A DNA stretch of 50,486 bases, filler included, from Jimgerdemannia flammicorona (GCA_003990765.1; 2 parts of 2 records of this genome joined end to end with filler, not necessarily neighbours in it); one strand, 5' to 3'. Shown: positions 1 to 25,468, counted from the first letter of the whole stretch. Notes: generated by a model not told the origin, from the letters alone. Numbers and translations: made by a program.

Positions 1-19
1 AAAAAAAAAAAAAAAAAAA

Positions 20-1421
20 GATGATCTTCTGACAGCTCCATCAACTCTGGGCTCATATGATACTGCAGAAAGCATTAACTCTGAGAGCAATAGTCAAGAG
101 ATAGCCTTTTTTACCAATCTTGCAGGCTCTTATGATGGAGAATTATTGGTATATTCACTGCAAGCAATAAGGCATTTGGCTATTGATACTGGACCACTGC
201 ACAATATACAAGGTAATAGAATATTAGAATTTTTTATTATTATTTTTTTTAAAAAAAAAAAAAATTATATTAATACTAAATATGCATGCATTTCATTTTA
301 AATACTTTAGTACATTGTTCAACACTTTCTGAAGATTTATTTCAGTTTTATTCATCTCTAGAGTCTAGCTCAGATGTACTCTGCTTGGTCAAAGTTACAG
401 TCATAGGTGAACCTGCAGTAGACCAGAGAGGAGTTGCATGAGAAGCCTTTCAAATTATATTGGACCATTATATTGGACCACAGTCACCTTTGATAGAGGG
501 CAATGAGAAATTTCTCCTACATACAGAAAGTTATTTGAATGTTGACAAGCATGACTATTGGACCTTAGGATGGATTATTGTGGCCTTATTTCTCAACTAT
601 AGACCTGCACCTGATTGCCTATATTCTGCTTGTCTTCTTTATGCTCACCATGATTCAATTGGTCATGAAGATGTATTGTCATTTAGTGAGCAATATGGCT
701 TCCTCCTTTGAGCACTAGACCTTACTGAAACAACAAAGGAGATATAGTCTGAATCTTTAGGGTCAGTTAGATTTTATATTCTTCTTTATATTTTTTTTAA
801 TTATAAATTATTTAATTTAAAAAATTCTTTTCATCTAGATTGACATCTGCCTTTGAAGAGCTTGATATCAGTCAGAATGTAGAGAATCTAAAGTATGAAG
901 ACAAGAACGAAGTTCTCTCATTGATCATAAAAACTCTTCTAATCTGGAAATGACAACCTGCTCTTGATCAGCTTGTTTCAGGATTCAATGTTGGAAACTT
1001 CATCAATAAGTTCATTTGTCAACCATAAAGATTTCAACCAATTGTACAACTTTTTTACTCTTCAGTTCTCTACAGTGAGGAAGATATTACCAATACAATT
1101 GATTGGCCATCACACTCAGCTCCTGGAACAAGGATCAGTATTTGTGTCCAGCTTTTCAAGGAGGTTCCCCACAGATGGTCTACCAATGATCCTCAACTTC
1201 TTAGTCAGTTGGTGCAGTTCTGGAGTGGTGCACGAAACATTCCAGTTCAAAAATGATTGCAGCTTAACATTCACTGTTTTGGGGTAACCAGCTCATGTTG
1301 GCCAGTAGCTCATACCTGTGGACCAATACTGGAAATCAGAGATAACTATGAAATAGGAGAGCAGCTTGCGGACAGCTTAGTTGCTGCATTTAATGAGAGA
1401 AGTGTCATGACTCTTCTATAG
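20..1421 (+). pseudogene. HECT-domain E3 ubiquitin ligase-like pseudogene, intron-containing, 5' part outside window
   Basis: Hand translation gives VKVTVIGEPAVDQRGVA*EAF (about 388-450; HECT 'GE.A.D.GG..RE.F' motif, TGA at the Arg) and LVQFWSGARNIP...WPVAHTCGPILEI (catalytic Cys codon 1317-1319), then TAG at 1419-1421. AT-rich GT-AG introns at about 213-310 and 763-838. Several in-frame TGA stops. Confidence 0.85.
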
Positions 1422-1559
1422 TGTTTCATATAAACAACCTTTCATTTCTATATCTCTTATTCTGTATCTCTACCTTACATTTCATTATATTTCAGTTATA
1501 TTACTGTGATCTTTGCTTCTTTGCTCTATATCTATCTTGCTGTTGTACCTCTGCATTTA

Positions 1560-2340
1560 ATTATATTACTATCTAGTATTTCTTTGTAGCATTATTATAA
1601 CTCATGTTCTTCTGCTCTATGATTATTTATATATCTTAACTTTTTATATCTCTGCCTCTGTGATTCTTTAACCCTGCCTCTGAAATTCCTTATATCTCTA
1701 ATCATTTGCCTCTTTGCCCTGTGACTCTTTGCATATCTGCACATTTTTTCTTACATCTCTTCTATGTGATCATCTGCCTCTTTGCCTCTGCAATTTCTTG
1801 CATCTCAACTCTTACTTCTCTGATCCTGCAATTTTCTACTATGCTCTATGGTTCTTTACATATCTGTCCCACAATTCTTTGCCTCTCTGCCCCAACCTGT
1901 ATTCATAGACAGAATGAAACCTTGGACAAACATTACAAGGCCCTACCACAGCCTGCAAGCCATAGTAATTACTACTGTGTACTCTGTTCACTATTCAAGA
2001 AATAGGTGCTAGATTGGATCGGATTGCTACTGTGTTGAACTGGGTCAGTCTAGTAATTCTTTTCATTTCTGTTCCTTTATTCTTTGCCTCTATACCCTGC
2101 GATTTCTTGCATCTTCGGCCTGCAATTCTTTGCTTCTCTGCTTCTGCAACCCTTTGCCTCTCTGCTTCTATGATTCTTTGCATCTCTGCCATGCAGTTCT
2201 TTGCATCTCTACCCTGCAATTCTTTGTATCTCTACCCTATGATTTATTGAACTTCCACCCTATATTCACACTTTATAAACTCACACTCACTTGTGTCACT
2301 GTATTCTGCATTTCTTTGTGCATCTGTGTCCTTTTGCAGC
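1560..2340. repeat. Pyrimidine-rich low-complexity repeat region
   Basis: Recurrent degenerate tctttgcatctctgc / tctgcctctg motifs. The minus strand reads as AEMQRI-like repeats but is interrupted by stops. Confidence 0.5.
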
Positions 2341-2474
2341 TCCTAAACTATTATTTGATCTTGAACTAGCAATTATAATAAATTCATACAGAATATGCTG
2401 TTGAAATGATTGGTGAATAGTGTGGTGAATGATTTTACACCATATGGTTAAATGCTCATGTGATTTCGACTTTC

Positions 2475-3240
2475 AGACAAAATACATTCAAACTCTCACC
2501 CACATTGCTCATTGCCAAGTCCAACTTATGGTTAGTAATATAAATGTTTTTGCCACTATTGGATCCTTAGACAAAATGCACCAGCACTGCTCATTGCCAA
2601 GTCTGACTTATGGTTAGTGATATAAATGTTTTGCTACTCTTAGATTCTCGTGTCCAAACTCTCAAAATGTGTTCAAACTCTCACCCATACTGCACTGCCA
2701 GATCCTCAGACAAAACATGTTCAAACTCTCACCCACACTGCTCACTGTCAGATCCTTAGACAAAATGTGTTCAAACTCTCACCTGTACTGCTCATTGCCA
2801 AGTCTGACTTATGGTTAGTTTTTATAATCAGACAAAACACATTCAAACTCTTACCCACACTGCTCATTGCCAAGCCTGACTTACAGTTAGTTTTTATAAT
2901 CAGACAAAATACATTCAAACTCTCACCTGCACTGCTCATTACCAAGCCTGACTTATGGTTAGTTTTTATAATCAGATAAAACATGTTCAAACTCTTACCC
3001 ACACTGCTCATTGCCAAGCCTGACTTATGGTTAGTTTTTATAATCAGACAAAACACATTCAAACTCTCACCCACACTGCTCATTGCCAAGCCTAACTTAC
3101 AGTTAGTTTTTATAATCAGACAAAACATATTCAAACTCTCACCCACACTGCTCCGAATATCCAACTCAGATAAAATGTATATCCAAACTCTCAAGCCATA
3201 CTGCTCATTGCTAAGTCTGACTTTTTTTGCCATTATCAGA
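2475..3240. repeat. 72-bp tandem minisatellite with degenerate outer copies
   Basis: Unit cagacaaaacacattcaaactctcacccacactgctcattgccaagcctgacttatggttagtttttataat recurs at about 2829, 2901, 2973, 3045 and 3117. Confidence 0.92.
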
Positions 3241-3297
3241 TCCTTCCACTGACTATGAATCTCCCTCACCCTCTCAAAACCCAGCTCAAGCATCAAA

Positions 3298-5431
3298 ATG
3301 ACCTGTACAAAACAAACTGCAAAGAAGTTGACCTTTGATAATGCAGCCCGATGAAGCCTGTCTCAAAGTGCAATCATGGCACCAACCAGGCATCCAGCTC
3401 GAGTGACCAATATAACCAGACCATCTATTCAGGTATATTATATGGAGGGGGTAAAAAAAAAAAAAAAAATGAATGAAATATATATATTTTCAGGTGAATG
3501 TCTCTATGACCAAAGCCTTTATCATTTTTTATTCTTTTGGATATTTTGGGATGTCTCTGTGATGGAAGCCTTAATATCTTTTCTGGTGAATGTCTCTGTG
3601 ACTGAAGTCTCTTTTATTTTTTATTCTTTAGATATTTTGGATGAATATCTCTGTGACTGAAGCCTTAATATGTATTCTCTTTTTTATTTTTATTCTTTTG
3701 GATATTTTGGGTAAATGTCTCTGGACTGAAGCCTTAATATCTTCTTTCCTGGTGAACATCTCTGTGACTGAAGCCTTTTTTATTTTTATTCTTTGGATAT
3801 TTTGGGTGAATATCTCTGTGACTGAAGCCTTAATATCCTCTTTTTTATTTTTTATTCTTTTGGATATTTTGGGTGAATGTCTCTATGACTGAAGCCTTAA
3901 TATCTTCTTTCCTGGTGAACGTCTCTGTGACCAAAGCCTTTTTTATTTTTATTCTTTAGATATTTTGAGTGAATATCTCTGTGACTGAAGTCTTAATATC
4001 TTCTTTTTTATTCTTTTTTCTTTTGGATATTTTGGATGAATGTCTCTGTGACAGAAGCCTTAATATCTTCTTTCCTGGTGAACATCTCTGTGACTGAAGC
4101 CTTTTTTATTTTTATTCTATAGATATTTTGGGTGAATGTCTCTGTGACTGAAGCCTTAATATCCTCTTTTTTATTTTTTATTCTTTTGGATATTTTGAGT
4201 GATTGTCTCTATGACACAAGCCTTAATATCTTCTTTCCCAGTGAATGTCTCTATGACCAAAGCCTTTTTTATTTTTTATCTTTGGATATTTTGGGTTAAT
4301 ATCTCTGTGACTAAAGCCTTAATATTCTCTTTTTTATTTTTTATTCTATGGATATTCTCTGTGACTGAAGTCTTAATATTCTCTTTTTTACTTTTTATTC
4401 TTTGGATATTTTGGGTGAATATCTCTGTGACTGAAGCCTTAATATTCTCTTTTTTATTTTTTATTCTTTGGATATTTCGAGTGAATGTCTCATGTCTCTG
4501 CAACTGATGCCTCAAAAATTTTCTAATTTCTATTATCGAACTGACTTATTATTAGAATTCTTGAACCATTAATATTGGTTGCATCAAGGGTACCATGTGC
4601 TGCCTGTGTGGGACCAGATGCTGTATTTTTGAAGGATACAGTATCAGCAACTGTTCCAATGCCATCTGCATTGAGAATGATCACAGTCATCTATGTGCAC
4701 TACTATTTATTGCTGAAGGAGCCTGGCAATGTCCATCTCATGACAGTAAAGCTAATATAACTGTTTGGTACAATGAGAACTGTCTCATTGATATCCAGAC
4801 ACTTGAATTGGCATCATTTTCGGAGCAGGAGATCCTCTTTTCAGCAACTGGGTTGATATTTTCTTCATATAGTGTGTGTACTTTTATATTTATATTTATT
4901 TGCTGATATTGGTCAGATTTTAGCTAATAAGATATTTTTTATCTATACAGAAAAACCAGATCCTTTTTACAAAGCACTCTTTTTCAACTGGAAATATGCT
5001 GAAGGCTGCTGTAATAAGCACTGATCAGATGTAAGGTTTTTTTTTTTTTTTTTTTTTAATCTATTTTTTAATATTATATTCTAATTTAATGTCATACTTT
5101 TTTCATCAGATGGTGACCTGAAGCTAGCAAATGGCTGTTAATCCTGACACATACTAATGATGAGGGTGATTTATGGTTTGAGATCACTAAAGATGGACAG
5201 CCATGGGCGACCCCATTGAATGAGGTATGTTTACAGAGTGTCTTTAGGTTTTTTATTAAATAAAATACTCATTTATTTACAGTTTTTTGCCAGCATCTTC
5301 ACCAATAGCAGAACATATAATATCAACATAGTTCTTTTCATCTGTGGCTCCCTAATACACTCTACCAAGTCCAATACTAAAAAGAAGTTGCAAGAGGAGA
5401 CTGTCCGGGTAATGAATGCATTGAAGAGGTA

Positions 5432-5462
<31 letters not shown>

Positions 5463-5830
5463 CTAAGTATCTATTTAAATATAATATATTTTATATAAAG
5501 CTAATGATTAAATTTATATTTATATAGACCAAATATTGGGAAAGTTCTTCTTTTTACACAACAAGATCTTCTACCAAATCAAATTGCTGGAGATGTTCTG
5601 AAGATTATTGAGCAGTATGAGATGTGTGGTGTTCCATTTGTAGAAGCTGTATGCCAAAGAGAGAATCTGTCAAGTCCTGTCTGGGTGTTGGAAAATGGTG
5701 AGGGAATATATATTCATGGAAAATTATTACCTTGTTCTAAACATCCACATGCATACAAAAGTAGTTAGTGCTGTATGATGGTTAAATGTAGTGAGAATGA
5801 TAGATATGTTGTTGAGATTGTAGAATGTAA
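3298..5830 (+). pseudogene. Multi-exon pseudogene: histone-H3-tail-like N-terminus plus PHD-like zinc finger plus uncharacterised C-terminal region
   Basis: Exon 1 (3298-3432) reads MTCTKQTAKKLTFDNAAR*SL...PSIQ. Donor GT at 3433; branch CTGAC at 4541; acceptor AG at 4554-4555. Exon 2 continues in phase: NS*TINIGCIKGTMCCLCGTRCC...CSNAIC...HSHLC...WQCPSH. Further GT-AG-bounded exons at about 4951-5030, 5110-5224, 5283-5428 and 5529-5830 (approximate). Confidence 0.6.
3490..4500. repeat. Composite intronic minisatellite
   Basis: About 20 copies of gtgaat(a/g)tctctgtgactgaagcctt alternating with T-rich ttcttttggatattttgg or tctttcctg linkers. Confidence 0.9.
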
Positions 5831-5957
5831 GGTTTTTTGTGGATAATAAAAAATAAATGCAATTTTATTCATAATATTATTTGGTTGCAAATTTGATAGC
5901 TAATATCACTTTAATTATATATAGTATAGCTAAATAATATAGACATTTATATATATC

Positions 5958-7449
5958 TGTAAGCATACAACCTCCAAGCCACCAGAATCGCATGGCATCC
6001 TCAGAACTAATTCGGAAACCACATGTGAGACTACAAAACAAGAGATTATCTGGTTACATGAAATACGCCAGCAAGCACAAGAACCCACTGCCAAGATATA
6101 AGAATACTAGAAGAATTACTACAACCATAAGACTGACTCTGAACTACTATAGCTAGTTTAGTGTACCGTACTATTACAAAAGAAACTGAAAGTACCAAAC
6201 TCAAATCAAGACAAGAAGAACCCTATCTCACCCATCAAAAGGTTCATGAACTGCACTTATCAACTCAAGACCCAGATATACCATGACTATACAAGACCTC
6301 ATTACTTAGCAGAAGCAAAACGCATTTGAACAACTCTGTTCGCTTTATCTGTATCACCTCCGTTGGAGAGTGACGGACACTTCATCTGAACTCAAGAAAG
6401 CCAACAATGTCGAAACCAATCTCAAGCCATCTATGTGACAGATATTACTACTAGAAATTGCCTCAGATTATAGAAAATATCATTTCCGAGAGGTTCGAAC
6501 CCCCAGCCACGACATTGGGAGCCCTCACCCTAGACAAGAATGGCCAGTCCTCGCAAATGCACCAGCAGACCAAAAAAAAAGAGAACCAAGATCTGTTATC
6601 CTTGTACAACTACCACCACCAAGGACAGTCTTAATCTTACAAGAGATAGAAGTGACGACATCTTGAAAACTGATGATGTCAGAAGTCAGAAAACTGCTCA
6701 GACTTTGCCAGTGATAATGTCATCAATAGTGATGTCATCAAAGACTAACCAGACAGTGCCTAAACCTATAAATAGCTTAGCAGTCATAGTATAGTTAGAT
6801 TAGCATTGTATGACGTGACTGTGAACTGACTCAGCAGTCAGACGATCTCTTAACATGTCAGATCACACTTGTACTACGTAACTGCATTCCGACTCAGCAA
6901 GGCACTTAGTGCTATATCCATATCTAGCATAGTCCAGATAGCCCCTCACTAGTATAAATACCCCCTCCCCCAGACCTCAGAATCTTAGACTTAAACAGAC
7001 TCGAACACACAAGAACATTCCTGAATACTTCCCCACAATACTCCTTCACACAAATACTCCTAGTATAGCAATATCATGAATAGCAAATAAACCTATTCCA
7101 TAATCCACAAACCACTCTTAAGTAAATCTGCCCCCTGTTAGGTCCCATTCCTAACCCCATCACGAAATTTCCTAATTGGGTATTGTCTGCAGCAATATGC
7201 CAATTCAACTAAGCTGGTCTTAGTTTCTTGAACTTCCTGAAATACGGAAAACCCTGAATATCCAGAACTAGTCCAGAAAAGGACTTTGGTTGAGACATCA
7301 ACCCGATCTTGAAATCAATAAGCATAGAGGACGTACTCCATATGAAATTGATCTTGACCATAAGAAAACGGTCTTTCAGAATATCCAGAATATCCAGAAA
7401 ACCTTTCCAGAACTACGTAACAGTTACCCTAAAAAGTAACCCTCTTACA
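5958..7449 (+). repeat. 5' LTR (1492 bp)
   Basis: Aligns along its length with 10840-12964 once the MITE is removed. TG...CA ends; TATAAATA at about 6953; AATAAA at about 7086. Confidence 0.95.
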
Positions 7450-7452
7450 ACT

Positions 7453-7464
7453 TGGTAGCAGTGG
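7453..7464 (+). promoter_or_regulatory. Primer-binding site, probably initiator tRNA-Met
   Basis: TGGTAGCAGTGG starts 3 nt after the LTR end. A TGGTAGC start matches the 3' end of eukaryotic tRNAiMet. Confidence 0.75.
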
Positions 7465-7645
7465 TTTACAATCCAATTCCACTTCAAGACACTTCCTCAC
7501 CCCGCTACAAACCCTTCTGCGAATTCCTACAAGTTGGTATAAAGCCCAACCTCTGAACTGGAATTTACCTGAACTATCTGACAATCTGGAGAGAATTTAA
7601 TCTGACATACAAGGACAATTTGACCTCCACACCTGCAACAAGTAG

Positions 7646-9480
7646 GACAAACTTCATTCCAAGAAAGAAGTACTCCGGTTAAACCAGCAAATAGGTGAAA
7701 TCCTATTCACTGAACTCCTTGCACTACACCCAGCAAGTCAAGACGAAGAAGGTCTTATTGAAGTCTTCTTTACTCTTCTCAACAAGAGTTTTGTTAGCTC
7801 CACAAATCCGAGCGACCTAGGACAATCAGCAGCAGTCTTTCTAGCCTTAGTTCCTCACGAAGCCCAAGCCGCTGTAGCCAAGTGGCTCAACTCTACTGAT
7901 TTTCACTGCACCAGGACCAAGACCGCCTTATACTACCAATTCCAGAACAGCAAGACCTGCCATATCCTTAAAGAAGAAGCAAGAGAAACCCTTCATCAAC
8001 TATCTGACCCCGAACCTAAAGCAGGCCCTGCTACAGCCCTACCTGAATCTGAAACCAATACTGAACCTGAACTTGACTTTGAATTAAGTCCATCTGAAAT
8101 CATATATACAACTGATTCTGTCTACTTTGATACTGAGCAAACCCAATTACATGGGGACCAAACCAAAGAAGAGGAGGAGTATCTCACTGAATTCGATCCC
8201 GGATATACCACCGAAGGAGAAGTACCTCCATCAGGACAGAATATACCTACACAGCAACAAACAGTTATCTATAAAGCCCTCACTCCAGACCCACAACTAC
8301 TACTCCAGCAACTTACACAGACCCAAAGAACCCCATCACACTCTGCACCAGTACCTCAAGTAGTACCAGTAACACCACTACCAGCAGTCCAAATGCCTCC
8401 AGTAAACAACATGGCAAATCAACAGATTCTAGAGCTCACAGCCCAAGTAGCTATAATGGCAGCAACCATTACTGCCTTAGCTGAACAGATCCGACCTACC
8501 AAAAATCTGAGCCTACCTACCTTCAATGGCACTGCACAAGAAGTCCAAAGCTTCATTAGTGTAGTTGACACCAACTTTGAAGCCAATCAATGGACTAATG
8601 AGCGAGTTGCTGACTGCATCCTGATAAACAATCAAGACCACACTTGGAACAACTCTTTGCTAAAACTACAGCCTATGTCCGCTGAGTTGTTACATTCTTC
8701 CAAGGACCTGCCAAAGAATGGTGGCAAACCCTTCCTGAAAAACCCCTCATATGGGATACCCGACCTGCAGTAGTTGCCCAGAATGCAGCAAACAATGCCC
8801 CAGGATATTGAGCCCATCCTGCAGCCCCTGGACTCAAACAACTCATGATTGCTCAATACCGCAGCGAAACCATGATTGCTGAATCTCGAGTAAAACTCCG
8901 CAACCTCAAATTTGATATATATGGCAAAGAAGAATTCGAAACCTTCTGTACAAAACTCGAGTCACTCCTGAATACTGTTGGCCTAGGATATATTGCCAAC
9001 GATGAAGCACAAAATGGTACAAGAGTAGACCATTTATTTGATGCCCTGCCTGAATGGCTTACTAGAAAAATCTGAGAACAAGGCTGCCCAGTTGGTTGTG
9101 ATCACCAACAATGGTGCCTGGCAAGAATCAAGACTATGGTCAAGCGAATCCTAACAGCTGGACCAATTCTGCCCTAAAGGCAATTCAACAACAAGGAAAA
9201 GACTTGGACCAGGAAAGAAGAACCCAAGCATGAAGCATCCCGAGCTCCCTCTACATCCACCTCTTGGACACCCAGAAATCCTGAACCTACCCAGCCCAGT
9301 ACCTTCAAGAAACTTACTGAAGGCGAAAGGAATGAACTTCGAAGAAGTGGAGCATGCTTCTATTGCCGAAAGACAGGACACATGGCCAGTACCTGCCCTA
9401 ACCGAAAACCCCAAACAGCAACCTGAGCAACTGTCACCACTCTGCACCATCTCAACAACCTGACCACCAGAACACTAGAC
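7646..9480 (+). pseudogene. gag: Gag (capsid-like region and CCHC zinc knuckle), decayed
   Basis: LPTFNGTAQEVQSFI capsid-like motif in ORF 8393-8773; CFYCRKTGHMASTC (CX2CX4HX4C) at 9355-9396; one frameshift and TGA stops. Confidence 0.85.
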
Positions 9481-9885
9481 TTTGTCAAGTTAAGACAAAC
9501 TACTAAGGCCCCAACCAAAGGAAGTCAAAAAGCAGCTGGATATGACCTGTATACAGCTGAAGAAGCTACAGTTTCCAACCAAGAAGTCAAACAAGTCTAC
9601 ACAGGAATCAGTATCCAAATCCCTGAAGGACATATTGGAAGAATATGCTGTTGCAGCAGCCTAGCACTGAAAGGACTCTCAGTAGAAGGAGGAGTCATTG
9701 ATGAAGATTACACAGACGAAATTATTGTCCTCATTCGAAACCACAGTTGGACACCCTTCAAAATCCCTATTGACTTCTGCATTGCCCAGATCCTATTCGA
9801 AAAAATCGAGTCAACCCTAACAGTCAAGGAAGTCCCTGAACTACTACCCACCATCTGAGGATCCAAAGGATTTGGCTCATCAAAC
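9481..9885 (+). pseudogene. dut: Trimeric dUTPase domain, in frame with Gag
   Basis: FVKL...GSQKAAGYDLY...TGISIQIP...GRICCCSSLA...GGVIDEDYTDEI...IAQILF...I*GSKGFGSS shows dUTPase motifs I-V. Conserved Arg codons have decayed to TGY/TGA. Confidence 0.95.
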
Positions 9886-10145
9886 AAGGCCCCGGCCCAA
9901 CCTACCGCGAGCAAAGAAGAACAATTCTACAAGAAGATAGAAGATGGATATGTACCAAGTGGCCGATGCCCTCATGGTATTGGAATGTACTCTTCCCGAA
10001 TGATTGATGATTGCTTCTCTTGTGTCAATGAACTGGCTCAAAGAAGAACCAACAGAAGAAAGGCTCCTACAATGGAAATCACCACCATTGGATCAGACAA
10101 ACTGTACACCCTTAAGGCTTTTGTCATGGAGCACCTGTCAAGATT

Positions 10146-10460
10146 ATGATAGACAGTGGTGCCTCAGGCAACTTCATCAATGAAGAAACAGCCAACAGAC
10201 TCAAGGTCTTCCCCTCTCCAGTACAGCAAACTCAAGTGGTTGCCACAGCTGATGGAACCTCACATGTTATTAGCAAAGAAGTCCGCAATCTACCCTTCCG
10301 AATTGACAACTACCGAGTACATGTTACCCTCCAAATCGTACTACTCCCTGACAATGAAATCATCCTTGGGACCCCATGGTTAAAACAAGAGAACCCCATG
10401 ATTGATTGGGTAAACCATTCTCTGACCATCAAGAAAGGACGCCACAACTTCAAACTATAA
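10146..10460 (+). pseudogene. Retropepsin aspartic protease of the Gypsy element
   Basis: MIDSGASGNFI active-site motif and IILGTPWL...NPMIDW motif; one frameshift just upstream. Confidence 0.93.
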
Positions 10461-10659
10461 GGCAAAAAGGACTCACTCAACTCTAGTAACCCTGGACCAA
10501 AGATCACCCACATCAACAAGCTACAACTCAAGAAATTGGCCAAGAAATGCCCTCTCTTCGCCATCTCCATCCGACCATCCAAAGAAGAACCCGAGAACTC
10601 TGAAGAAGACTTTTCCAAAGTTGACAGCCATGTCAGACCACTACTCCAGAAGGTCCAAG

Positions 10660-10750
10660 ACACATTTCCAAACCGAACCACAGAACCACCTGCACCTGTC
10701 ATTATTAATGACCAAGAAGAATACAAGGTTGAACAAATCCTCAACAAATA
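10660..10750 (+). pseudogene. Integrase C-terminal tail and chromodomain start remnant
   Basis: FPNRTTEPPAPVIINDQEEYKVEQILN resembles the chromoviral 'PPPP...EEYEVEKIL' segment; it is truncated after ILN. Confidence 0.75.
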
Positions 10751-10825
10751 TAGCCACAAGAACCATCCAAATGGTATAACAACACCAGAACAAATTAGAA
10801 GGCCCTGACGAGGACGTCGAAAGCT

Positions 10826-10838
10826 AAGAAGGGGAGAG
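10826..10838 (+). promoter_or_regulatory. Polypurine tract
   Basis: AAGAAGGGGAGAG immediately before the 3' LTR TG. Confidence 0.85.
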
Positions 10839-10839
10839 T

Positions 10840-12964
10840 TGTAAGTGCACAACCTCCAAGCCACCAGAATCGCATGGCATCCTCAGAACTAATTCGGAAA
10901 CCACATGCGAGACTACAAAACAAGAGATCATCTGGTTACACGAAATACACCAGCAAGCATGAGAACCCACTGCCAAGATACAAGAATACTAGAAGAAGTA
11001 CTATAACCATAAGACTGACTCTGAACTACTATAGCTAGTTTAGTGTACCATACTATTACAAAAGAAACCGAAAGTACCAAACTCAAATCAAGACAAGAAG
11101 AACCCTATCTCATCCATCAAAAGGTTCACAAACTGCACTTATCAACTCAAGACCCAGTTATACCATGACTATACAAGACCTCATTACTTAGCAGAAGCAA
11201 AATGCATTTGAACAACTCTGTTCACTTTATCTGTGTCACCTCCATTAGAGAGTGATGGACACTTCATCTGAACTCAAGAAAGCCAACAATGTTGAAACCA
11301 ATCTCAAGCCATCCATGTGACAGATATTACTACTAGAAATTGTCTTGGATTACAGAAAATATCATTTCTGAGAGGTTCAAACCCCCAGCCGCGACATTGG
11401 GAGCCCTTGCCCTAGACGAGAATGGCCAGTCCTCGCAAATATGCCAGCAGACCAAAAAAAAAGAGAACCAAGACCTGTTATCCTTGTACAACTACCACCA
11501 CCAAGGACAGTCTTAATCTTACAAGAGATAGAAGTAACGACATCTTGAAAACTGATGATGTCAGAAGTCAGAAAACAGCTCAGACTTTGCCAGTGATGAT
11601 GTCATCAATAGTGATGTCATCAAAGACTAACCAGACAGTGCCTAAATCTATAAATAGCTTAGCAGTCATAGTATAGTTAGATTAGCATTGTATGACGTAA
11701 CTGTGAACTGACTCAGCAGTCAGATGATCTCTTAATATTAGTGCTCTGAACGAGTCAATCCGGATGGGATTTGGATGGATTCGAATTGGATTCGAATTGG
11801 ATTCGAATCAACCATTGTTTTGATTTCCAAATTAGACAATTAAATGTTTACATCAATAACTTGATGAATAATCATCCAAATTTGATGATCTTGGTGTCAT
11901 TTGAAAGCCCTTAATAAGGCCTTTCTAATGATACCAAGAACATTAAAATCAGATTACGTGTTGCCGAGATATTAAGGAAAACGTTCCATTTGACGAAATT
12001 TCCAAAATCGGCAAATCAAAGAATTTCCAAAATCGGCGATTCAGACATTTTCCTTCATAACTCAGCAACGCATAATCCGATTTCAATGTTCTTAGTATCA
12101 TTAGATAGGCTTTATTAAGGGCTTTCAAATGACACCAAGATCATCAAATTTGGATGATTATTCATCAAATTATTGATGTAAACATTTAATTGTCTAATTT
12201 GGAAATCAAAACAATGGTTGATTCGAATCCGATTCGAATCCGATTCGAATCCGATTCGAATCCATCCGGATGGGATTCGAATCCCATCCGAGTTGATCTG
12301 GATGGGATTCAATCCAAATCAATCCGAATCCAATCCAGATTAAATTGACTCGTTAGGAGCACTACTTAATATGTCAGATCACACTTGTACTACATGACTG
12401 CATTCTGACTCAGCAAGGCACTTAGTGCTACATCCATATCTAGCATAGTCCAGATAGCCCCTCACTAGTATAAATACCCCCTCCCCCAGACCTCAGAATC
12501 TCAGACTTAAACAGACTCGAACACACAAGAACATTTCTGAATACTTCCCCACAATACCCCTTCACACAAATACTCCTAGTATAGTAATATCATGAATAGC
12601 AAATAAACCTATTCCATAACCCACAAACCACTCTTAAGTAAATCTGCCCCCTGTTAGGTCCCATTCCTAACCCCGTCACGAAATTTCCTAATTGGGTATT
12701 GTCTGCAGCGATATGCCAATTCAACTAAGCTGGTCTTAGTTTCTTGAACTTCCTGAAATATGGAAAACCCTGAACATCCAGAACTAGTCTGGAAAAGGAC
12801 TTTGGTTGAGACATCAACCCGATCTTGAAATCAATAAGCATAGAGGACGTACTCCATATGAAATTGATCTTGACCATAAGAAATGGTCTTCCAGAACATC
12901 CAGAATATCCAGAAAACCTTTCCAGAACTACGTAATGGTTACCCTAAAAAGTAACCCTCTTACA
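10840..12964 (+). repeat. 3' LTR, interrupted by a MITE
   Basis: Copy of 5958-7449; the differences are mostly C>T and G>A transitions. Confidence 0.95.
11739..12364. mobile_element. hAT-type fold-back MITE (626 bp)
   Basis: TIRs TAGTGCTCTGAACGAGTCAAT / ATTGACTCGTTAGGAGCACTA; perfect 8-bp TSD CTTAATAT (11731-11738 and 12365-12372); absent from the 5' LTR; internal inverted arms of more than 200 bp. Confidence 0.93.
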
Positions 12965-12989
12965 ATATCTTTATCCTTAGAGAAAGAGT

Positions 12990-13199
12990 TATTCCAGAGA
13001 AAAGAGTTTTCCTTCTAAGGAGCTAGGTGAATCCAGCATAATAAATATATTAAATTTGAACTTGATTTTGTTAAGTTATTAAATTTTAAAGTTTGTCTCT
13101 AAATTTTGAATCAAATTGAACCTCAATTCAATTTGATTTAATTCCAATGACCCCCAATTCAATTCAATTGGAATTGATTCAATTTGTTTACGAGCACTA
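12990..13199 (-). mobile_element. Single end of a related hAT-type MITE
   Basis: Ends in TTTGTTTACGAGCACTA. The reverse complement resembles 25469-25590 (tagtgctc..aacaaatt...aatttgattcaaaatt...taataacttaac). No partner end found. Confidence 0.65.
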
Positions 13200-13460
13200 G
13201 GCTGGACAGTTCAGGTGATGTATATTATCAGATAGCATGATTGGGCAATTTGTGTAGAGAGTAAAGAAAATATAACAGCCAATGGCTCAGTAGAAATATG
13301 TGTGATCAGAATTCAGAAAGTCAGAATACAGGGGTCTAATACATGTATGTAAACAAGAAGTATAAACTATTTCTGAATGATCAATATGAACTTCAATATA
13401 ATCTCTGAAAATGCAAAGACTGAACTATTCTCAAGATATAAATACATATATCAGTATTAA

Positions 13461-15076
13461 TTATATATAAAGTAATTGCAATACAACCTCTATTGCCCTA
13501 ACATATATATCTATTCTCCAAAGATCAGATACTGCCAATGGATCTATCTCTGTTTGTAGCTGCATTTTTATTTCATCAGAAAGGCCAATGTCCTGAGAAG
13601 GCTCCTTTTCTTTAGATTCACCACCTATGCCAACTGGACCATCCCAATCAATTCCAAAATCCTCATGTATTCCTCCAAATATATCAAAAATATACTGGTC
13701 ATCTTCTCTTGCATCAAATCGATTCTGTTGCTCAGCATTAGATATGCCCAGAATGAACAACTGCCGTGGGGTTCTATTATTCTCCATTGTAATAGGATGT
13801 CGATTCCAACCCTCTATAAATAATTGGAGGACAGCTCAAATTTGGGGAATATATATAAAGTAAAGACACCACATATGAACTGGATTGTCAATATCTAAGA
13901 ATCCCTGATGCTCAAGTTCATAAAAAATCTTAAAATAGCAATAGATTTAAAGTTAGAAAATATATTAAATAATATTATTTAAATATATATATATAATCTT
14001 ACCTCATAAAATATTCTCAATACACAACTCCATACATCTCACCAAAGTTGTTCAATTCATTGATTATGTGTAGATTTTCCAGCAATAAAACTGCCATGGC
14101 CAATTCCTCTTATTCGCAACATAAACTTACAGACAGCATAATTTTCACCTCCCTTATCACCTTGAACTCGACTAGGACAACTCCAAGATTGGATTCCTTG
14201 TAAAAATGCTTCCATCATTGTTTCTTTCTGATTATTATTGTTTAACATAAGAAATGTTATTGCCTGAGTCATGCTATCAATACTGCCATATACAACCATC
14301 TTCCATCTATCCAATCCATGATATCCATCAATATGCCAGAGAGAGTTTGGTTGCTCAACCCAATAGACTTTTTGCTGAATACTCTCAGCCCATCGTATAG
14401 AGACAACAATAGGATCAATCACTTGTAAGGCTCTTCAAATTCGATGTCGACGAATATGTATTCCTTGGCTTCACAATACTCCAGTTAGTGTTCACTCTCC
14501 ACTATAAGCATCTGTTGTCTGCTTAAGATGCCTTATCATATTCTCCAGATCAGTATCAGAAATATCTGTCCATTGTCTACAGATTCCATAATCACGTAAT
14601 CATCTCTTGATAGTTGATTCTGAGATACCAAAGAGTCGAGCAATATCAGAATTTTTTAGACACTCTTCTACATTGGCAATAAGAATCTCCTTGCTGATAA
14701 GATAGTCTGGACGTCCACCTTGTCCAGTCCAAATAACTTGTGGTTGAATAGGTAATAATGCAACTTCATCTGCATCAACATGAGTATGGATTCTAAGAAG
14801 CAGTAAATGGGCTAAGTCAAGATTGCTCTGGATCCATAGATCAGGCAATAGAGTTGCAAGGCAATTGAGATTATTTGCAAGCTGATCCAATTGAAGAAGG
14901 TGGAGGTCAAATTCAGAATGATTGCCATTATTTCGCAAGTTCAATACATTTTGAGCATCTTGTATAATTTGGGAAGCTGTATGAAAGAAGTTCTGTATTT
15001 GATCCAGTTTGTGTGGTATGCACAGCTTACTTGGCTTATATGGTTTATATGGCTTATGTAGTTTGTGTTTGCTCAC
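13461..15076 (-). pseudogene. rve/IS3-like DDE integrase-core transposase pseudogene (IS3EU-like), one intron
   Basis: HTH IARLFGISESTIKR; core PNSLWHIDGYH...YGSID...PSRVQGDKGGEN...GKSTHNQ*IEQLW (D, D, E); intron at about 13929-14002; C-terminal GWNRHPITMENNRTPRQLF. Arg>TGA stops. Confidence 0.88.
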
Positions 15077-15179
15077 AGCTTACTCAGCTTGCACAGCTTG
15101 CACAGTTTGCATAGTTTGCACACCTTGTATGGCTTGTATGACTTGTATTGCTTGTGGATGATACAGGTTATATAGCTTA

Positions 15180-15600
15180 TGTTGACTTATGTATTTGATA
15201 GAGATTAGGTGGCATAAGCTTAAGTGAGTGGTATAAGCTTAAGTAGGTAGCATAAGTTTAAGTGGGTGGTATAAGCTTAAGTAGGTGGCATAAGCTTATG
15301 TGGGTGATGTAAGCTTAATTGCTTATAAAAAATCCACTTTTTTTGTCAATCCAATTTTTTTGGTTGTCAATGCAATTTTTTTGATCAAATTTCGTTAATC
15401 CACTTTTTTGATCAAATAATTTTTTTGGTCAAATTTCGTCAATCTAATTTTTTTGGTCAAATTTCATCAATCTAATTTTTTTGTTCAAATTTTTGTCATC
15501 AATCCAATTTTTTTGATTAAATTCATCAATCTAATTTTTTTGGTCAAATTTTTATCATCAATCCATTTTTTTTGATCAAATTTCTTGTCGATCCATGATT
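15180..15600. repeat. Short degenerate tandem repeats upstream of the transposase (subterminal-like)
   Basis: About 19-bp gcataagcttaagtaggtg copies (15205-15320), followed by about 27-bp tttttggtcaaatttcgtcaatctaatt copies. Confidence 0.7.
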
Positions 15601-15614
15601 TGATAGTTTTGACC

Positions 15615-17160
15615 CTAATGGTATGCCATATTCCAGTAGCACCTGTTATAACTCCCCAACCTCTATTTTCACCTACACTAATCTCCAATCCTCCTCCCTC
15701 TAGGGCCACCAGACCTGCTCAATCTTCCTTAAGCCTAGCCAGTCTAGCAGAAGGCCATCACACCCTCTTCCTCCTCTGTCTTCCAGCCACCTTGCCAGCC
15801 TCACTCCCATAGGCCATAGTAGTCTCTTTTATCCTCATCCACTGGACACCAACTGGGGTACCCTCCTGTATTCAACCCTCCACCCTCTGCTGAATATCCT
15901 CAGCCCACTTGTCTTGTAGTATCCTATCATCTAACAAAGAGGAATTAAGGCATCAATGTCTAGGCCCATCTACTTCCCCCAAAATGACCCTGCCCCAGCA
16001 ACCCCTAATGATCCAACCACAGATACCACTCAGCCTCCAGCAACTTTCAAACATCCAAACCCCAGCAGCTCACTGTCAGAATCCAGTTAATCCTCATCTC
16101 CAAGCTACCTGTCCAGTACATGTATATCCTCCTATTACCCCAAAACTCCCTACCAGTATCCACCAGAGTACTTAGCCTCTCCACTCCTACCCTCAGCCCC
16201 CTGCTCTCCATCAGTTCTATCTACCAGCACATCTCTGACCATATTAAAGTCTCTGCTAAGCATATCTACTTCAGCCTCTGTGAGGGCCCCACTCTCCTGG
16301 AGACTCTTCACCCAATCTACATGCTCACTCTATACAGCAGAGCAGTAGCAGGAACCCACTGTAACTGACTCCCAACCTGTTCATACCCACTCTCTCCAAA
16401 CCAGCCTATCACCCCAGCTCCTCATATCTGATTTCTCCCCTCTGCCTCTCCAGACCAGAATCCCAACCTTGTCCTTCCAAACTACCTCACCTCACCATTC
16501 CTTCATCCATTCCAGACTATTTAAGTCATTTGCACATCTGACATCCTGCAAAAGAAAGAGATCAGCCTTCAATCCCTTCAGCTAAGTAATATTGTTCTGA
16601 TACTAAAAGAACTCTATAACCTATTCACATTCAAGAAAAAAATGTTGGTTATACTGTTCATATGGAATATTGTGAGATAGCAAGTCCATCCTCTACTGCT
16701 CCATATTCATTACCTCCTGTGCCAAGTCCAGATTGTTTTCAGCAGACACCTCCTCCTCTTCAGCCCTTCTAGCCTCCAATCCAACTAGTAGCTCAGTCAT
16801 TTCCCCATCCTCCTTTTTCTCAAAATCTTCACAATACTTCAGGCAGGCCTCCTGCCAGAGTTGTAATTCATGATACTCAGCCCAACATTAGGTGGCCCAC
16901 TCATTAGCAGCAACTGCCAGCTCGGCCTCCCTCTCCTTATCAATCTCATACTCTTCCTTCTCTAGAAAAACTACAAGTATTTCTGCCTTCAGTGCCTTCA
17001 CCACTCCATTGCTATGTAGGATCTATACCCAATGCTCATTACTCATCACTCTTAGGTCCACTTCCCCCAACTCTTCAGCTGCAAAGTTATTCATCATCTG
17101 GCACACTATAGTAGGTTTCCCACCTCCTTCCCCCCTAGAGTTGCTGGCCTTAAGCTAATA
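15615..17160 (-). mobile_element. Decayed L1/Tx1-like LINE fragment (ORF1 end plus APE endonuclease)
   Basis: Reverse complement is homologous to about 22540-23990: MNSITNIFFLNVN start at 16661, and GPRH*CLNSSLLDD. Confidence 0.85.
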
Positions 17161-20889: not shown

Positions 20890-23800
20890 AGTACCATTCA
20901 GGTTACACAACCTTTGGAAGGCACTCATAACATCGTTTTTGGAGAAAAGAGACTAACAATATGGCGACTGACAGGCAACCTGAGGTGTGCACTGGGCAGG
21001 GTGGCCCAAGTGCTTTCGACTGGCAGCAGGTGGGGAGGGGTCTGGGCCTGGGGGGGGTTAAGAGGGGGCTGCTGGTGGGTGGATGTGGAAGGGGTGAAGG
21101 TGGAGGTGGAGACTCAGGATCTGGGAGGGCGAGCTTTGTGGAGATGGTGAAGGAGAGACAGCAGGCATCAGGGCTGGAGGGCTGGTTGAGGAAGGGCAAG
21201 GAGACCGAGAAGGTGACAGTGCAGGGGGGAGCAGCCCTTGGAAGGGGGGGTAGTGGAGCTGGGGGAGTAGCAGCTGGGGGGAGTGTGACTGCTGATGGTG
21301 ATGGGACTGTCAATCTTGAAAAAAATCCAGATGTAACGGCTGATGGCGAGGCCGAGTGGTTGAGGCTTAGAAGACAAGGGGATCTGGTGGATGGTGTAAC
21401 GGGTCTGGCAGTGGCCCCATTACTCAAAAAATCGATCTTGGCATTTGCAGTTATACTGTGCTTCCAGGGCCTAGCAGTGACAGCAAAAATGGTACTGGGG
21501 CTCATCGCTAAGCAGGTGGCAGGAGCTGCATCCGTGAAGTTTTTGAAGAGACTGGAGGGAGTGGAGGTGGGTTTTGAGGAGGCGGCGCCACTGGAGGAGG
21601 TGCTGAAGGTTGGATTGGTAGTTGGAGAGGTGTGTGTTCTGATGGCATGCTGCCTGAAGTGGGATCCCAGGGTGGTCCAACTGCTGGTGAAAGGAGTGCC
21701 GATAGTGACAGTGATGGAGACAAGAAAGAGAGTTGAGGATTTCATGGCAGAATATGGAGAGGTGGTGGATATCAGATTCAGGGTCTGGGAAGGGACCACA
21801 CTCAGGACTGGTGACGTGGATGTGAGGATTCGGCTGGCTGGGAAGGAAGCTACTGGGAAGGCGAGGGACTGGCCTTCAGTGATGGTCTGGAGAGTGATCT
21901 TGTGTAAGGTGACAAGGGTGAAGGGAAGTGAGGAGGAGGAGGAGGATTTATTGGAAGTGCTAGAAGAGTTGGATGGTGCTGTAAAGAGGTGAGCGAAGGC
22001 TTGGGAGGCCTTTGTGGAATCGACACACTTGGAGGTGGCAGATTCGAGTGACTAAGGAGCAGTGGGAAAGAGCTCAGGGGTGTAAGAGACAGAAAGAGCT
22101 GCTGGCCAAGCTGGATACTGGGCCACTGGGGGATGCGAGCAAGATGAAGGGCACAGGGGGAGCTGAAGCGAGCATCTGGGCCGGCGAGGGAGAAGGGAAG
22201 AATAAGAAGGAGGCAGGGGAGGATAAGGCAAAACCTAGTAACGACTCATATGCTGATGGTATGCTGGAGGTTTGGGAGGAGGACTGGGAGGGCTCTCCTA
22301 CCCCCACCCCTCTTATCAGGTATGGCCCGGCTTCCAGAAACAGAGTGTTAGAAGATGTGCCAATGCGAGGGGCCCAGAGGGTGCAATTCGGAGTTCCAGA
22401 GACGGTATATGGGGGACAGATGGTGGCAGCTGGAGAGGAGGAACTGGTGGATGTCCCAGAGGTATGGGATGAGTCTGCAAGTGCTGGAGCTGACACCATA
22501 ATGTTGGATGGAGGGAGGCCGGTGACTCTGGGGAGGAAGGAGGTGGGGAACTTACTTTGGATGTGCTGGATGATGAATAACTTGGCAGCAGTAGAATTGG
22601 GAGAGGTGGACTTGAGAGTGATGAGTGATGAGCATTGGGTAGGGATACTGCAGAGGGATAGAGTGATGAAGGCATTGAAGGTGGAAATTCTTATGGTGTA
22701 CCTGGAGGAGGAAGGATATGAGGTGGATAAGGAGAGGGAGGCAGAGATGGTGGTAGTTGCTGGAGAGTGGGCTGAATACTGCTGGAACAAGTGTCATGGA
22801 CTGCAGCTCTGGCAGGAGGCATGCATAGAATACTGAGAGAAGTTCGAGGAGAAGGCAGATAGAGAGATGAATGAACTGCTGGCTGGATTGGAGGCTCAGA
22901 GGGCAGAAGAGGAGGAGGTGGCTGCAGAACACAATCTGGACATAGCACAGGGGGAGATGAGCATAGAGCAGTAGAGATCGATTGACAACATAACATATTT
23001 CATTATGAACAGTACAACCAATATTTTTTCTCTAAATGTGAATGAGTTATGGGGTGCTGCTCAACGTAGGAACATTTTTACTTGGATGAAGGGATTGGAG
23101 GCCAATCTCTTCCTCTTGCAGGATGTCAGGTGTGAGGAGGATTCTAATAAGATGGAATGGACGAAGGAATGGGGAGGTGTGGCGATTTGGAAGGGCAAGG
23201 TTGGGATTTTGGTTCGGAAAGGCAGAGGGGAGATATAGGATGTGAGGAGCTGGGGGGAGAGACTGGTCTGGGGTGAGTGGATTCATGCAGGCTGAGAGCC
23301 AGTTACAGTTGGCTCCTGTTACTGCCCTGTAGTATGGGGTGAGCAAGTAGATTGGGTGAAAGGTTTACAGGAGAGTGGGATCCTTGCAGATGTGCTTGGG
23401 GGAGATTTCAATATGGTTTGGGACATACTGCTAGATAGAACAGATGGAGGATAAGGTGCTGAGAGCAGGAGTGGAGGACTGGTGGCATGGAAGGAAGTAG
23501 AAAGACTAAGAGCACTGGTAGATGCTGGTAGGGAGTGCTGGGGGAATAGGAGGGTTTATACACATTGGGCAGGGGGTTTGGGGACAAGAATCGACTGGGT
23601 TTTGATGGCCAGCTGCTGGGGCTTAGATGTTTGGAAGTCACTGGAGGTGGAATGGTGTCCATTGTCAGATCACTGGGGGCTTTTGGGACAGGGGTGCTTT
23701 GGGGGAAGTGGGGATGGGCCTGGACATTGGTGCCTCAATTCCTCATTGTTAGATGACAGGAACTGGTGGGATGAGTGGGCTAAGGACATTCAGCTGAGGG

Positions 23801-23995
23801 TGGAGAACTGGTGGTGGGAAGGTGCCTCAGTTGGGGCTTAGTGGATGAGGATGAAGGAGATTGCCAAGATTTACTGGAGTGAGGCTGGCAAGGAGGCAGG
23901 GAAGCAGAGAAGGCAAAGAGTGCATTGGGCTTCTACTAGATTAACTAGGCTCCTGGAGGAGTGGGCGAGGCTGATGATGTTGGAGGATGAAGAAG
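20890..23995 (+). mobile_element. L1/Tx1-like LINE, 5' portion: ORF1 (20961 to about 22990) and ORF2 APE endonuclease (from 23005), cut by an LTR
   Basis: Purine-rich ORF1 with an RRM-like segment (YGEVVDIRF...RTGD). ORF2 has SLNVN, LLQD, LGGDFN, YTHW...TRIDWVL, SDH and GPGHWCLNSSLLD motifs. No RT is reached. Confidence 0.9.
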
Positions 23996-24793
23996 TGTAA
24001 GAGGGTTACTTTTTAGGGTGACCATTACGTAGCTCTGGAAGGGTTTTCTGGAAGTTCTGGATATTCTGGAAGACCGTTTTCTTATGGTCAAGATCAATTT
24101 CATATGGAGTACATCCTCTACGCTTATTGATTTCAAGATTGGGTTGATGTCTCAACCAAAGTCCTTTTCCGGACTAGTTCTGGATGTTCAGGATTTTCCG
24201 TATTTTAGGAAGTTTAAGAAACTAAGACCAGCTTAGTTGAATCGGTGTATCGCTGCAGACAATACCCAATTAGGAAATTTCGTGACGGGGTTAGGAGTAG
24301 GACCTAACAGAGAGCGGATTTACTTAAGAGTGGTTTGTGGGTTATGGAATAGGTTTATTTGCTATTCATGTTATTGCTATACTAGGAGTATTTGTGTGAA
24401 GGGGTATTGTGGGGAAGTATTCAGGAATGTTCTTGTCTGTTTGAGTCTGAGATTCTGAGGTCTGGGGGAGGGGGTATTTATACTAGTGAGGGGCTATCTG
24501 GGCTATGCTAAATATGGATGTAGCACTAAGTGCCTTGCTGAGTCGGAATGCAGTCACGTAGTACAAGTGTGATCTGACATGTTAAGAGATCGTCTGACTG
24601 CTGAGTCAGTTCACAGTCATGTCATACAAGGCTAATCTATCTATACTATGACTGCTAGACTATTTATAGGTTTAGGCACTATCTGGGTAGTCTTCAATGA
24701 CATCACCATCGATTGCATCATCTCTGGTGAAGTAGTCATCTAGGAAGAGTGGTTCACGGATTATTTCTCCTTGTTGGCTGAGGTAGTAATACA
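23996..24793 (-). repeat. Solo LTR, short (about 800 bp) variant of the 5958 family
   Basis: 23996 to about 24710 is the reverse complement of about 6730-7449. A different 85-nt segment follows, ending in TAATACA (TG on the minus strand). Flanks AGAAG and TTGGC do not match. Confidence 0.85.
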
Positions 24794-25196: not shown

Positions 25197-25296
25197 NNNN
25201 NNNNNNNNNNNNNNNNNNNNNNNNNNNNNNNNNNNNNNNNTTAATTAATTAANNNNNNNNNNNNNNNNNNNNNNNNNNNNNNNNNNNNNNNNNNNN
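25197..25296. other. Artificial assembly spacer
   Basis: 44 N + TTAATTAATTAA (stops in all six frames) + 44 N = 100 bases. Confidence 0.97.
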
Positions 25297-25468
25297 TTTA
25301 ATAAAATTAAGTCTCTACAGATTTTTATTAAAAGAGAATCTAGACTATATAGACCAAAATCCTCTCACTAAGTACTAACCCTCTCATTGTCCTAGACTAT
25401 CAAATTATTATAGACTAGACTTATCTGTTTACTAAAACTAGATCATTATTTATATATGAGAGTATATT

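Follow-up and report, generated by a model that had tools for sequence, protein, structure and literature searches.

The first 15,630 nucleotides (positions 1-15630) of a 50,486-nt stretch of DNA from Jimgerdemannia flammicorona (GCA_003990765.1; two parts of two records joined end to end with filler), called the window throughout, probably make up the right-hand portion of an IS3EU/GingerRoot-type DNA transposon, old and now inactive, with a resident HECT ubiquitin ligase gene. We also think it likely that this HECT gene is a second gene belonging to the element rather than a neighbouring host gene, because related elements carry the same two-gene core within TATGG...CCATA ends and 6-bp target-site duplications (TSDs). 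Judging from the sequences of these relatives, the existence of IS3EU-type elements with a HECT ligase gene of their own is close to certain. Read leftwards from position 15630, the window holds one arm of a terminal inverted repeat (TIR), subterminal repeats, a transposase gene on the minus strand, a Cys-rich gene on the plus strand and the HECT gene, also on the plus strand, the last two converging on the transposase. With a nested long terminal repeat (LTR) retroelement subtracted, the portion of the element in the window is at least 8.6 kb long, the three genes span about 8.6 kb, and about 680 nt separate the Cys-rich gene from the transposase, measured between their 3' ends. The original prediction, made from the DNA sequence, had proposed a single IS3EU-like element carrying a HECT ligase, with three genes within about 8.5 kb; the measured span agrees with this, and the single element is supported by the recurring gene layout, by relatives bounded by TIRs and TSDs, and by the alignment of the right end. 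In terms of annotation, this part of the window becomes a single composite transposon, dead and with an LTR element nested in it, rather than three intron-rich host genes.

The transposase and HECT gene pair in related elements

Related loci were collected by scanning metagenome contigs with an alignment of the transposases, and the best 80 of 490 relatives were examined. A locus was counted as testable if its downstream flank, beyond the transposase, was at least 1500 nt long (48 of the 80), and loci were collapsed into families at 80% nucleotide identity. The decayed HECT gene of the window matches two of these loci, L066 and L067, downstream of the transposase and on the opposed strand, where intact HECT open reading frames (ORFs) end ...RRPVAHTCGPVLEMPSTY. 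When these and other ORFs were used as queries, 34 of the 48 testable loci gave an opposed HECT-like match, at a distance of 150-3162 nt on the downstream side of the transposase; of the 32 loci whose flanks are shorter, 4 did so. Matches placed elsewhere occurred in 5 loci, and the upstream flanks, which served as a control, gave a HECT-like match in 3 of 24. Counted by family, the transposase is accompanied by an opposed HECT in 21 of 29. The HECT domain was confirmed by Pfam for ORFs from three loci (L066, L016 and L048) and, weakly, for L067.

The pair lies within defined element boundaries. A unit of 7.4-10.5 kb is common to loci L016, L025, L030 and L031, which are about 98-99.5% identical over it; the unit begins TATGGAACGCCGTCATGG, closes with its inverse, and has inverted ends of about 140 nt (TATGGAACGCC...). 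This unit is flanked by 6-bp TSDs (GATAGA, TCATAG, CCTTAG) and encloses both a transposase ORF (Pfam 1.8e-85) and an opposed HECT. A scan for termini and TSDs, which took in 40 loci of at least 4 kb, yielded 8 copies from four families, 4.6-10.1 kb long, that have perfect 6-bp TSDs and both genes (L016, L025, L030, L044, L062, L071, L072 and L073). Two further loci (L006 and L028) have both genes with imperfect TSDs, and one (L074) has no HECT. The TSD-bounded element at L062:9034-17088 has HECT-like matches in both orientations, together with long internal inverted repeats (10154-10500 and 15540-15842), an arrangement that resembles a palindromic internal duplication.

The transposon-linked HECT proteins form a heterogeneous family in which the catalytic residue is largely kept: 82 of 95 family sequences match a regular expression for the catalytic Cys and 3 more carry the motif by eye, the remainder being fragments or sequences without a C-lobe in the stretch examined. 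Matches to Pfam HECT were obtained for 16 of 20 long transposon-type proteins, and a 20-member profile compared with the PDB gave TOM1/HUWE1 as its best match at E=0.0012, which places these proteins very far from solved HECT structures. No known N-terminal or substrate-binding domain was found in the transposon-type HECT proteins. An alignment of P0037 with 19 long transposon-type HECTs does contain two conserved blocks upstream of the HECT domain, one reading ...VRQKNGGGNRF... and the other a Cys cluster (VC..C.CS...G..CLRC), neither of which belongs to any Pfam family; these blocks may be a substrate- or DNA-binding part. The L048-type ligase has 83 homologues; those with names come from corals, Hydractinia, Exaiptasia, abalone, oysters, mussels and sea urchins, and are labelled "uncharacterized".

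Cellular HECT E3 ligases (E6AP/UBE3A, HUWE1/TOM1 and the NEDD4 family) have the same C-lobe catalytic Cys in the same P-x-A-H-T-C context. In contrast to them, the transposon HECTs are very divergent, are encoded inside a mobile element, and have G-x-x-L-E after the catalytic Cys, where cellular HECT enzymes have F-N.

The transposase pseudogene

The transposase was identified by Pfam rva_4 (PF24764, E=1.1e-42), with a weak rve match and weak matches to an N-terminal helix-turn-helix (HTH). Homology to the relatives P0001-P0006 by tblastn extends over 14764-13494, in one frame from 14764 to 14000 and in another from 13937 to 13494, and identity to P0001 is 46.5% and 31% across these two parts. 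The contexts of the catalytic D, D and E are kept in comparison with the relatives (WHIDGYHG, VQGDKGGEN and STHNQ*IEQLW). The only relatives with a name, among P0001-P0006, are from a Tremellales species.

Seven in-frame stops interrupt the gene, all of them TGA (14602, 14494, 14473, 14437, 14059, 14041 and 13838), and at least three of these align with Arg in relatives. An alternative code in which TGA is a sense codon was rejected, given these Arg positions and the depletion of CpG. The stops are instead attributed to CGA-to-TGA decay, since at least three fall at Arg positions of relatives and the DNA is CpG-depleted. It follows that most of the "introns" with which the three genes had been credited are decay of this kind (the gaps are mostly in-frame stops, seven in the transposase and four in the HECT gene) and that the transposase is a pseudogene. 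It has at most one intron, a candidate GT..AG interval of 74 nt at 14002-13929 that coincides with the sole frame change. A duplicated coding motif (...IFYE / ...IFYE..., window 13929-14015) lies on either side of this candidate, which looks as if insertion or tandem duplication had produced its GT..AG borders, hence a possible case of intron gain.

The HECT ligase pseudogene

Pfam HECT (PF00632) was detected at E=1.2e-7 with 32.2 bits against a cut-off of 23.9, at about nt 888-1406 on the plus strand, which together with the rva_4 match upholds the proposal that a HECT gene converges on a DDE transposase. The recognizable parts are an upstream exon at about 2-213, an N-lobe at about 310-708, and a C-lobe at 816-1418 that ends ...WPVAHTCGPILEIRDNY. 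N-lobe motifs are spread across about 400-700, including GEPAVDQRGVA*EAF at about 400-450, and the catalytic Cys motif (HTC, at about nt 1310-1320) is kept near the C-terminus, within a motif, PVAHTCGP.LE, that matches the transposon-linked HECTs. The reading frame is not intact; in-frame stops lie at 439, 951 and 1254 (TGA) and at 1026 (TAA). The gene runs off the left edge of the window, its N-terminal part lying outside. A profile of 12 transposon-linked HECT ORFs matches nt 310-633 at profile positions 279-379 of 513, so about 280 N-terminal positions are expected to the left of the window. A protein homologue search with the window HECT returned nothing at E<=0.001, and its best match among PDB sequences is the E6AP C-lobe at E=0.024.

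The right terminus and tandem repeats

The right end of the element reads ...GGTATGCCATA up to 15630 (read inward, TATGGCATACCATTAGGGTCAAAAC), and this sequence is unique in the window. Seven related elements have ends with which it aligns; TATGG is invariant in the alignment, the window follows the shared consensus TATGGAATGCCATT..GGACAAAA, and the sequence fits the ends published for fungal IS3EU elements, TAYGG..CCRTA (PMC12730594). The 6 nt directly after the terminus (15631-15636) are the predicted TSD. A partner TIR arm was not found within the window. The left end would lie beyond the window's left edge as an inverted copy of TATGGCATACC..., reading inward TATGGCATACCATTAGGG..., and the 6 nt found after 15630 would be repeated immediately before it. 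The prediction that neither terminus is visible thus holds for the left end, which is outside the window, and fails for the right.

Minisatellites and subterminal-like repeats had also been predicted, and Tandem Repeats Finder located both. The subterminal repeats comprise 15206-15318 (units of 19/38 nt) and 15374-15584 (14/28/59 nt), and the TSD-confirmed relatives likewise carry repeated subterminal sequence. The internal minisatellites have units of 23, 50/72 and 163/67 nt (direct-repeat families D1-D3). The positions of these and the other features are collected in Table 1.

Table 1. Features located in the window, in order of position (+, plus strand; -, minus strand;., no strand).
Feature	Position	Strand	Basis
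HECT-type E3 ligase pseudogene, C-terminal roughly two thirds	1..1418	+	Pfam, profile of linked HECTs
Internal minisatellites between HECT and Cys-rich gene	2079..4491	.	Tandem Repeats Finder
18-codon ORF, doubtful "H3 tail"	3298..3354	+	Motif scan
Multi-exon Cys-rich gene (predicted earlier as "PHD"), small family, function unassigned	4556..5765	+	Homologue search, exon colinearity
Nested LTR retroelement, later insertion, outside the transposon gene set	5958..12965	+	LTR alignment, TSD
MITE-like insertion in 3' LTR, 208-nt inverted arms	11739..12364	.	Inverted repeats I1, I16
IS3EU-type (Pfam rva_4) DDE transposase pseudogene, N-terminal HTH	13461..15079	-	Pfam, tblastn
Subterminal tandem repeats, right arm of transposon	15180..15600	.	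Tandem Repeats Finder
Right terminus, one TIR arm	15606..15630	-	Sequence, alignment with TSD-confirmed elements
Flanking decayed LINE fragment (endonuclease region)	15631..17150	-	Inverted similarity to second copy

Do the HECT gene and the transposase belong to one element?

That the HECT gene and the transposase of the window sit in one copy is argued by analogy with the relatives and by parsimony, the left end being outside the window, and several results weigh against it. The best match of the window HECT to the transposon-linked HECTs is 30% identity over 112 residues (E of about 9e-6, computed on a small set), and a profile of 95 transposon-linked proteins scores the window at 15.5 + 5.7 bits, against 32.2 for generic Pfam HECT; the lower score means that sequence alone fails to place the window HECT in the transposon-linked group. 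The window transposase is just 37-42% identical to the 25 best-matching related loci, and no HECT appears in 8 of the 29 families whose flanks are long enough. About 5 kb separates the HECT gene from the transposase in the window, compared with 0.15-3.2 kb in relatives, and the window interposes another gene and 2.4 kb of minisatellite between them. Nor do relatives share the third gene: the Cys-rich family was found in 0 of the 80 related transposase loci by tblastn and hidden Markov model (HMM) searches.

The linked HECTs are, moreover, very heterogeneous, with groups that do not detect one another; for instance, six long L048-type HECT proteins gave no matches in L016, L006, L044, L071 or L062. 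Co-divergence of the transposase and the HECT C-lobe was null across 15 families and 53 pairs (Spearman 0.003, reached in 985 of 2000 permutations), in a crude test based on pairwise identities. Together with the absence of the Cys-rich gene from relatives, this heterogeneity and the null test lead us to two readings of the association: it may be old, the ligases having evolved fast, or it may be renewed through exchange, as Kojima (PMC12730594) describes for TET/JBP genes.

The foremost alternative is that the three genes are chance neighbours in a repeat graveyard, namely a truncated IS3EU remnant next to a HECT gene and a Cys-rich gene that are decayed host genes or parts of other elements. 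We regard this as unlikely, although it has points in its favour: everything in 1-24500 is CpG-depleted repeat debris (an LTR element, a solo LTR and LINE fragments), the window HECT is no closer to transposon-linked HECTs than to the generic HECT family, and the spacing between the genes exceeds that of relatives. Against these stands the recurrence of an opposed HECT beside such a transposase in 21 of 29 related families. A fungal genome has few HECT genes, so a chance HECT neighbour within 5 kb in the right orientation is improbable. A terminus or other element boundary between the genes was also looked for, and neither a second terminus-like sequence between HECT and transposase nor inverted subterminal repeats between 1420 and 13460 were found in a scan of the window. 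In the stretches of the window scanned, no reverse transcriptase or other Pfam domain was detectable left of the element's end, and no Pfam domain was found in any frame of 1501-4402 on the plus strand or 1-5957 on the minus strand. The similar CpG decay that had been seen in the three genes does not discriminate, since the low ratio extends to neighbouring repeats.

A second alternative, that two IS3EU copies, or an IS3EU copy and another composite element, were joined by deletion or nesting, with the HECT gene coming from another copy and the Cys-rich gene and minisatellites marking the junction, appears improbable to us. Nested and rearranged relatives do occur (the element at L062 with its HECT-like matches in both orientations, and L027 with mismatched TSDs), and the absence of the Cys-rich gene from all 80 related loci would fit such a junction. 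On the other hand, the interval 1420-13460 is free of the internal termini and inverted subterminal repeats looked for, a joining of two copies needs more events than a single element, and fungal IS3EU elements with a third gene between two opposed genes are known (PMC12730594). A single element with its own HECT gene therefore remains the reading that we prefer.

The Cys-rich gene and the H3-like ORF

Within that single element, the Cys-rich gene would, by its position in the sequence, be physically inside, and its status as regular cargo is so far unsupported. The three-gene form with HECT, Cys-rich gene and transposase is so far unique to the window. On whether the HECT and Cys-rich genes recur with the transposase, the related loci give a divided answer, with an opposed HECT in 34 of 48 loci and the Cys-rich gene in none of 80.

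An exhaustive homologue search against 1.84 billion representatives with the ORF at 4565-4903 retrieved P0007 (53% identity, E=3.5e-26), P0009, P0012 and P0013, the three remaining matches being repetitive bacterial proteins. Exons at 4598-4885 and 5538-5759 are colinear with residues 5-96 and 190-265 of P0012 (292 aa), and in the family alignment the window copy has a Tyr in place of one conserved Cys. None of the window ORF, P0007, P0009, P0012 and P0013 was assigned to a Pfam family. Leads for P0012 in the Atlas all score below 0.9, with two Basidiomycota clusters at 0.87 and 0.83 and a DUF6642/CHAT-like cluster at 0.88; the C-terminal part of the family may have a caspase-like (CHAT) fold, a lead that comes from this nearest Atlas cluster, which is bacterial.

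The gene had been called a PHD protein with an N-terminal mimic of the histone H3 tail. For the PHD, no zinc finger was recovered by a profile search of the PDB or, for residues 1-62, in the Atlas, and the His of the putative C4HC3 pattern is missing in two of the four homologues (P0007 and P0013); with the absence of a Pfam match, we see no grounds to retain the name. The "H3 tail" is an 18-codon ORF, MTCTKQTAKKLTFDNAAR*, in which a motif scan found the pentapeptide TKQTA shared with the H3 tail. Set against the H3 N-terminus, this ORF (M-T-C-TKQTA-KK) would agree at 10 of 18 positions, and its Cys3 and Leu11 are presumably each one CpG-to-TpG step from the H3 residue; we leave it as a doubtful curiosity. 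A phmmer search of the PDB with the ORF returned nothing at E<=10, and P0007, P0012 and P0013 begin just before the Cys motif, without an H3-like N-terminal extension, which speaks against an H3-tail mimic.

We accordingly give very little credence, the least among the alternatives, to an anti-silencing module made up of the HECT ligase and a PHD reader with a fused H3-tail mimic, acting on chromatin to keep the element active: the frame of the ORF does run to a GT donor at 3433, from which an AG at 4555 would stay in frame with the Cys-rich exon, and transposon-borne TET/JBP genes show that chromatin- or DNA-modification cargo exists in fungi (PMC12730594), but beyond the missing PHD signal, the lack of an extension in all three homologues with N-termini and the lack of recurrence with the transposase, the window copy is itself silenced and decayed.

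Nested and flanking elements and the decay of the region

The LTR retroelement predicted as a Gypsy element and the MITE (miniature inverted-repeat transposable element) predicted with it were both located. The two LTRs (5958-7450 and 10840-12965) are 94.9-96.3% identical, with a 5-bp TSD, ATATC, on both sides, and they differ in length because the MITE-like insertion sits in the 3' LTR. The element encodes gag, a zinc knuckle, dUTPase and aspartyl protease (the last two by Pfam), and it is taken to be a non-autonomous derivative since reverse transcriptase, RNase H and integrase are absent.

The right end of the transposon abuts a long interspersed nuclear element (LINE) fragment, as had been predicted: 15732-17150 is an endonuclease fragment, 73.7% identical in inverted orientation to 22516-23951, which carries Exo_endo_phos at E=3.9e-6. 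The transposon appears to have inserted into a decayed LINE, and the reverse-transcriptase part of that LINE, on the minus strand, would lie beyond the transposon's left end. The two inverted LINE copies are about 5 kb apart, and the DNA between them, about 17.2-22.5 kb, is extremely skewed in GC, with a change of sign near 21 kb. A partial LTR belonging to the nested element's family (about 92% identical) lies inverted at 23996-24733 and interrupts the second LINE copy at about 23996.

The first 24.5 kb of the window are AT-rich, with a CpG observed/expected ratio of 0.04-0.26 across 1-24500 outside the nested LTR element and of 0.32-0.43 inside it. The ratio is 0.94 beyond two gaps of 44 N each (25197-25240 and 25253-25296), and the jump at 24500-25300 is either a sharp border between methylated and unmethylated compartments or a scaffold join. 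All seven transposase stops and three of the four HECT stops are TGA, several of them at Arg positions of relatives, which is a clean CGA-to-TGA signature of methyl-CpG deamination, unlike the CpA bias of RIP-like (repeat-induced point mutation) decay. The window copy would have been methylated and silenced, would have decayed by CGA-to-TGA changes, and would later have been invaded by the LTR element.

Elsewhere in the window, we noted a fragment of a GH35-type beta-galactosidase at 34513-35175 and a tandem duplication of about 2.8 kb (43611-44492 and 46455-47303, 81-96% identical), each duplicate having a 251-aa ORF (44207-44962 and 47018-47773), neither with a Pfam family. On sequence alone, the GH35 fragment, the Tremellales relatives of the transposase and, as leads, the Basidiomycota clusters nearest to the Cys-rich family pointed to a probable basidiomycete host. 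Three tandem 80-nt units, 76-93% identical to a reference copy, occupy 40454-40693 inside the region of a 155-aa ORF on the minus strand.

Comparison with known elements

Accessory enzymes are known from other DNA transposons, such as ULP1-type proteases in MULE, Ginger2 and KDZ elements and OTU proteases in Helitrons. These transposons likewise have an enzyme of the ubiquitin/SUMO system as a resident second gene; theirs are deconjugating proteases, whereas the enzyme of the window type is a conjugating E3 ligase.

The published descriptions of IS3EU-type elements agree with the window in several structural respects. IS3EU elements have TA..TA ends and 6-bp TSDs (PMC10045372), and in fungi they possess TIRs of over 30 bp, the termini cited above and 6-bp TSDs (PMC12730594). 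With the IS3EU/GingerRoot elements of PMC6839031, the window shares an IS3/integrase-like DDE transposase (rva_4) with an N-terminal HTH and, at its right end, the TA..TA terminal motif, while the related loci have 6-bp TSDs and long TIRs. Internal and subterminal tandem repeats like those of the window are found in an IS3EU-like repeat of Hydractinia (PMC11934779), a paper in which the structure and function of IS3EU are called "largely unexplored". The IS3EU elements of PMC6839031, PMC10045372 and PMC11934779 are described with a transposase only, in contrast to the window and 21 of 29 related families, which add a HECT gene. A term search found HECT in none of the three papers; ubiquitin is likewise absent from PMC6839031 and PMC10045372, and ligase from PMC11934779.

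Closest in layout are the TET/JBP IS3EU elements of rust fungi and Tuber (Kojima 2025, PMC12730594), which are likewise large and multi-gene; in them the transposase has an accessory-enzyme gene opposed to it, with a third gene in the middle. Their cargo is an alpha-kinase and a TET/JBP dioxygenase, which illustrates that fungal transposons can carry genes for chromatin or DNA modification, as opposed to the HECT ligase and Cys-rich protein of the window; the scanned stretches of window 1-15700 yielded neither a TET nor a kinase domain. A term search of that paper and its supplement found neither HECT nor ubiquitin. A published link between IS3EU/GingerRoot and HECT or ubiquitin ligases was not found in the library of papers searched, none of which names both IS3EU and HECT.

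Possible role of the ligase

In active relatives, copies about 99% identical to one another keep the catalytic Cys and long open frames, and the ligase would there work for the element. It would, as a guess, ubiquitinate a host factor or the transposition complex, and we offer a host-directed counter-defence role as a tentative idea that we rate at somewhat less than even. With similar reserve, we suggest that a large branch of IS3EU/GingerRoot, spanning marine invertebrates and at least one fungus, might have a catalytically competent HECT ligase as a second core gene that rewires host ubiquitination, whether by having silencing or repair factors degraded or by having the transposition complex dismantled. 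Fungal members would have gained further cargo, for example the Cys-rich gene.

A transposase is usually considered all that a DNA transposon needs, and the extra genes already known, among them TET/JBP dioxygenases and ULP1 proteases, have helped to show how transposons contend with host silencing. If the proposal is true, it would add a class of transposon-encoded ubiquitin ligases of which we found no description in print. The presence of a HECT gene in most of the sampled IS3EU families, with its catalytic Cys conserved, suggests that host ubiquitination is manipulated much as it is by viruses, and offers a testable entry into the workings of a poorly studied superfamily. In corals, hydroids, molluscs and urchins, many of the "uncharacterized HECT domain proteins" may, in turn, be transposon genes.

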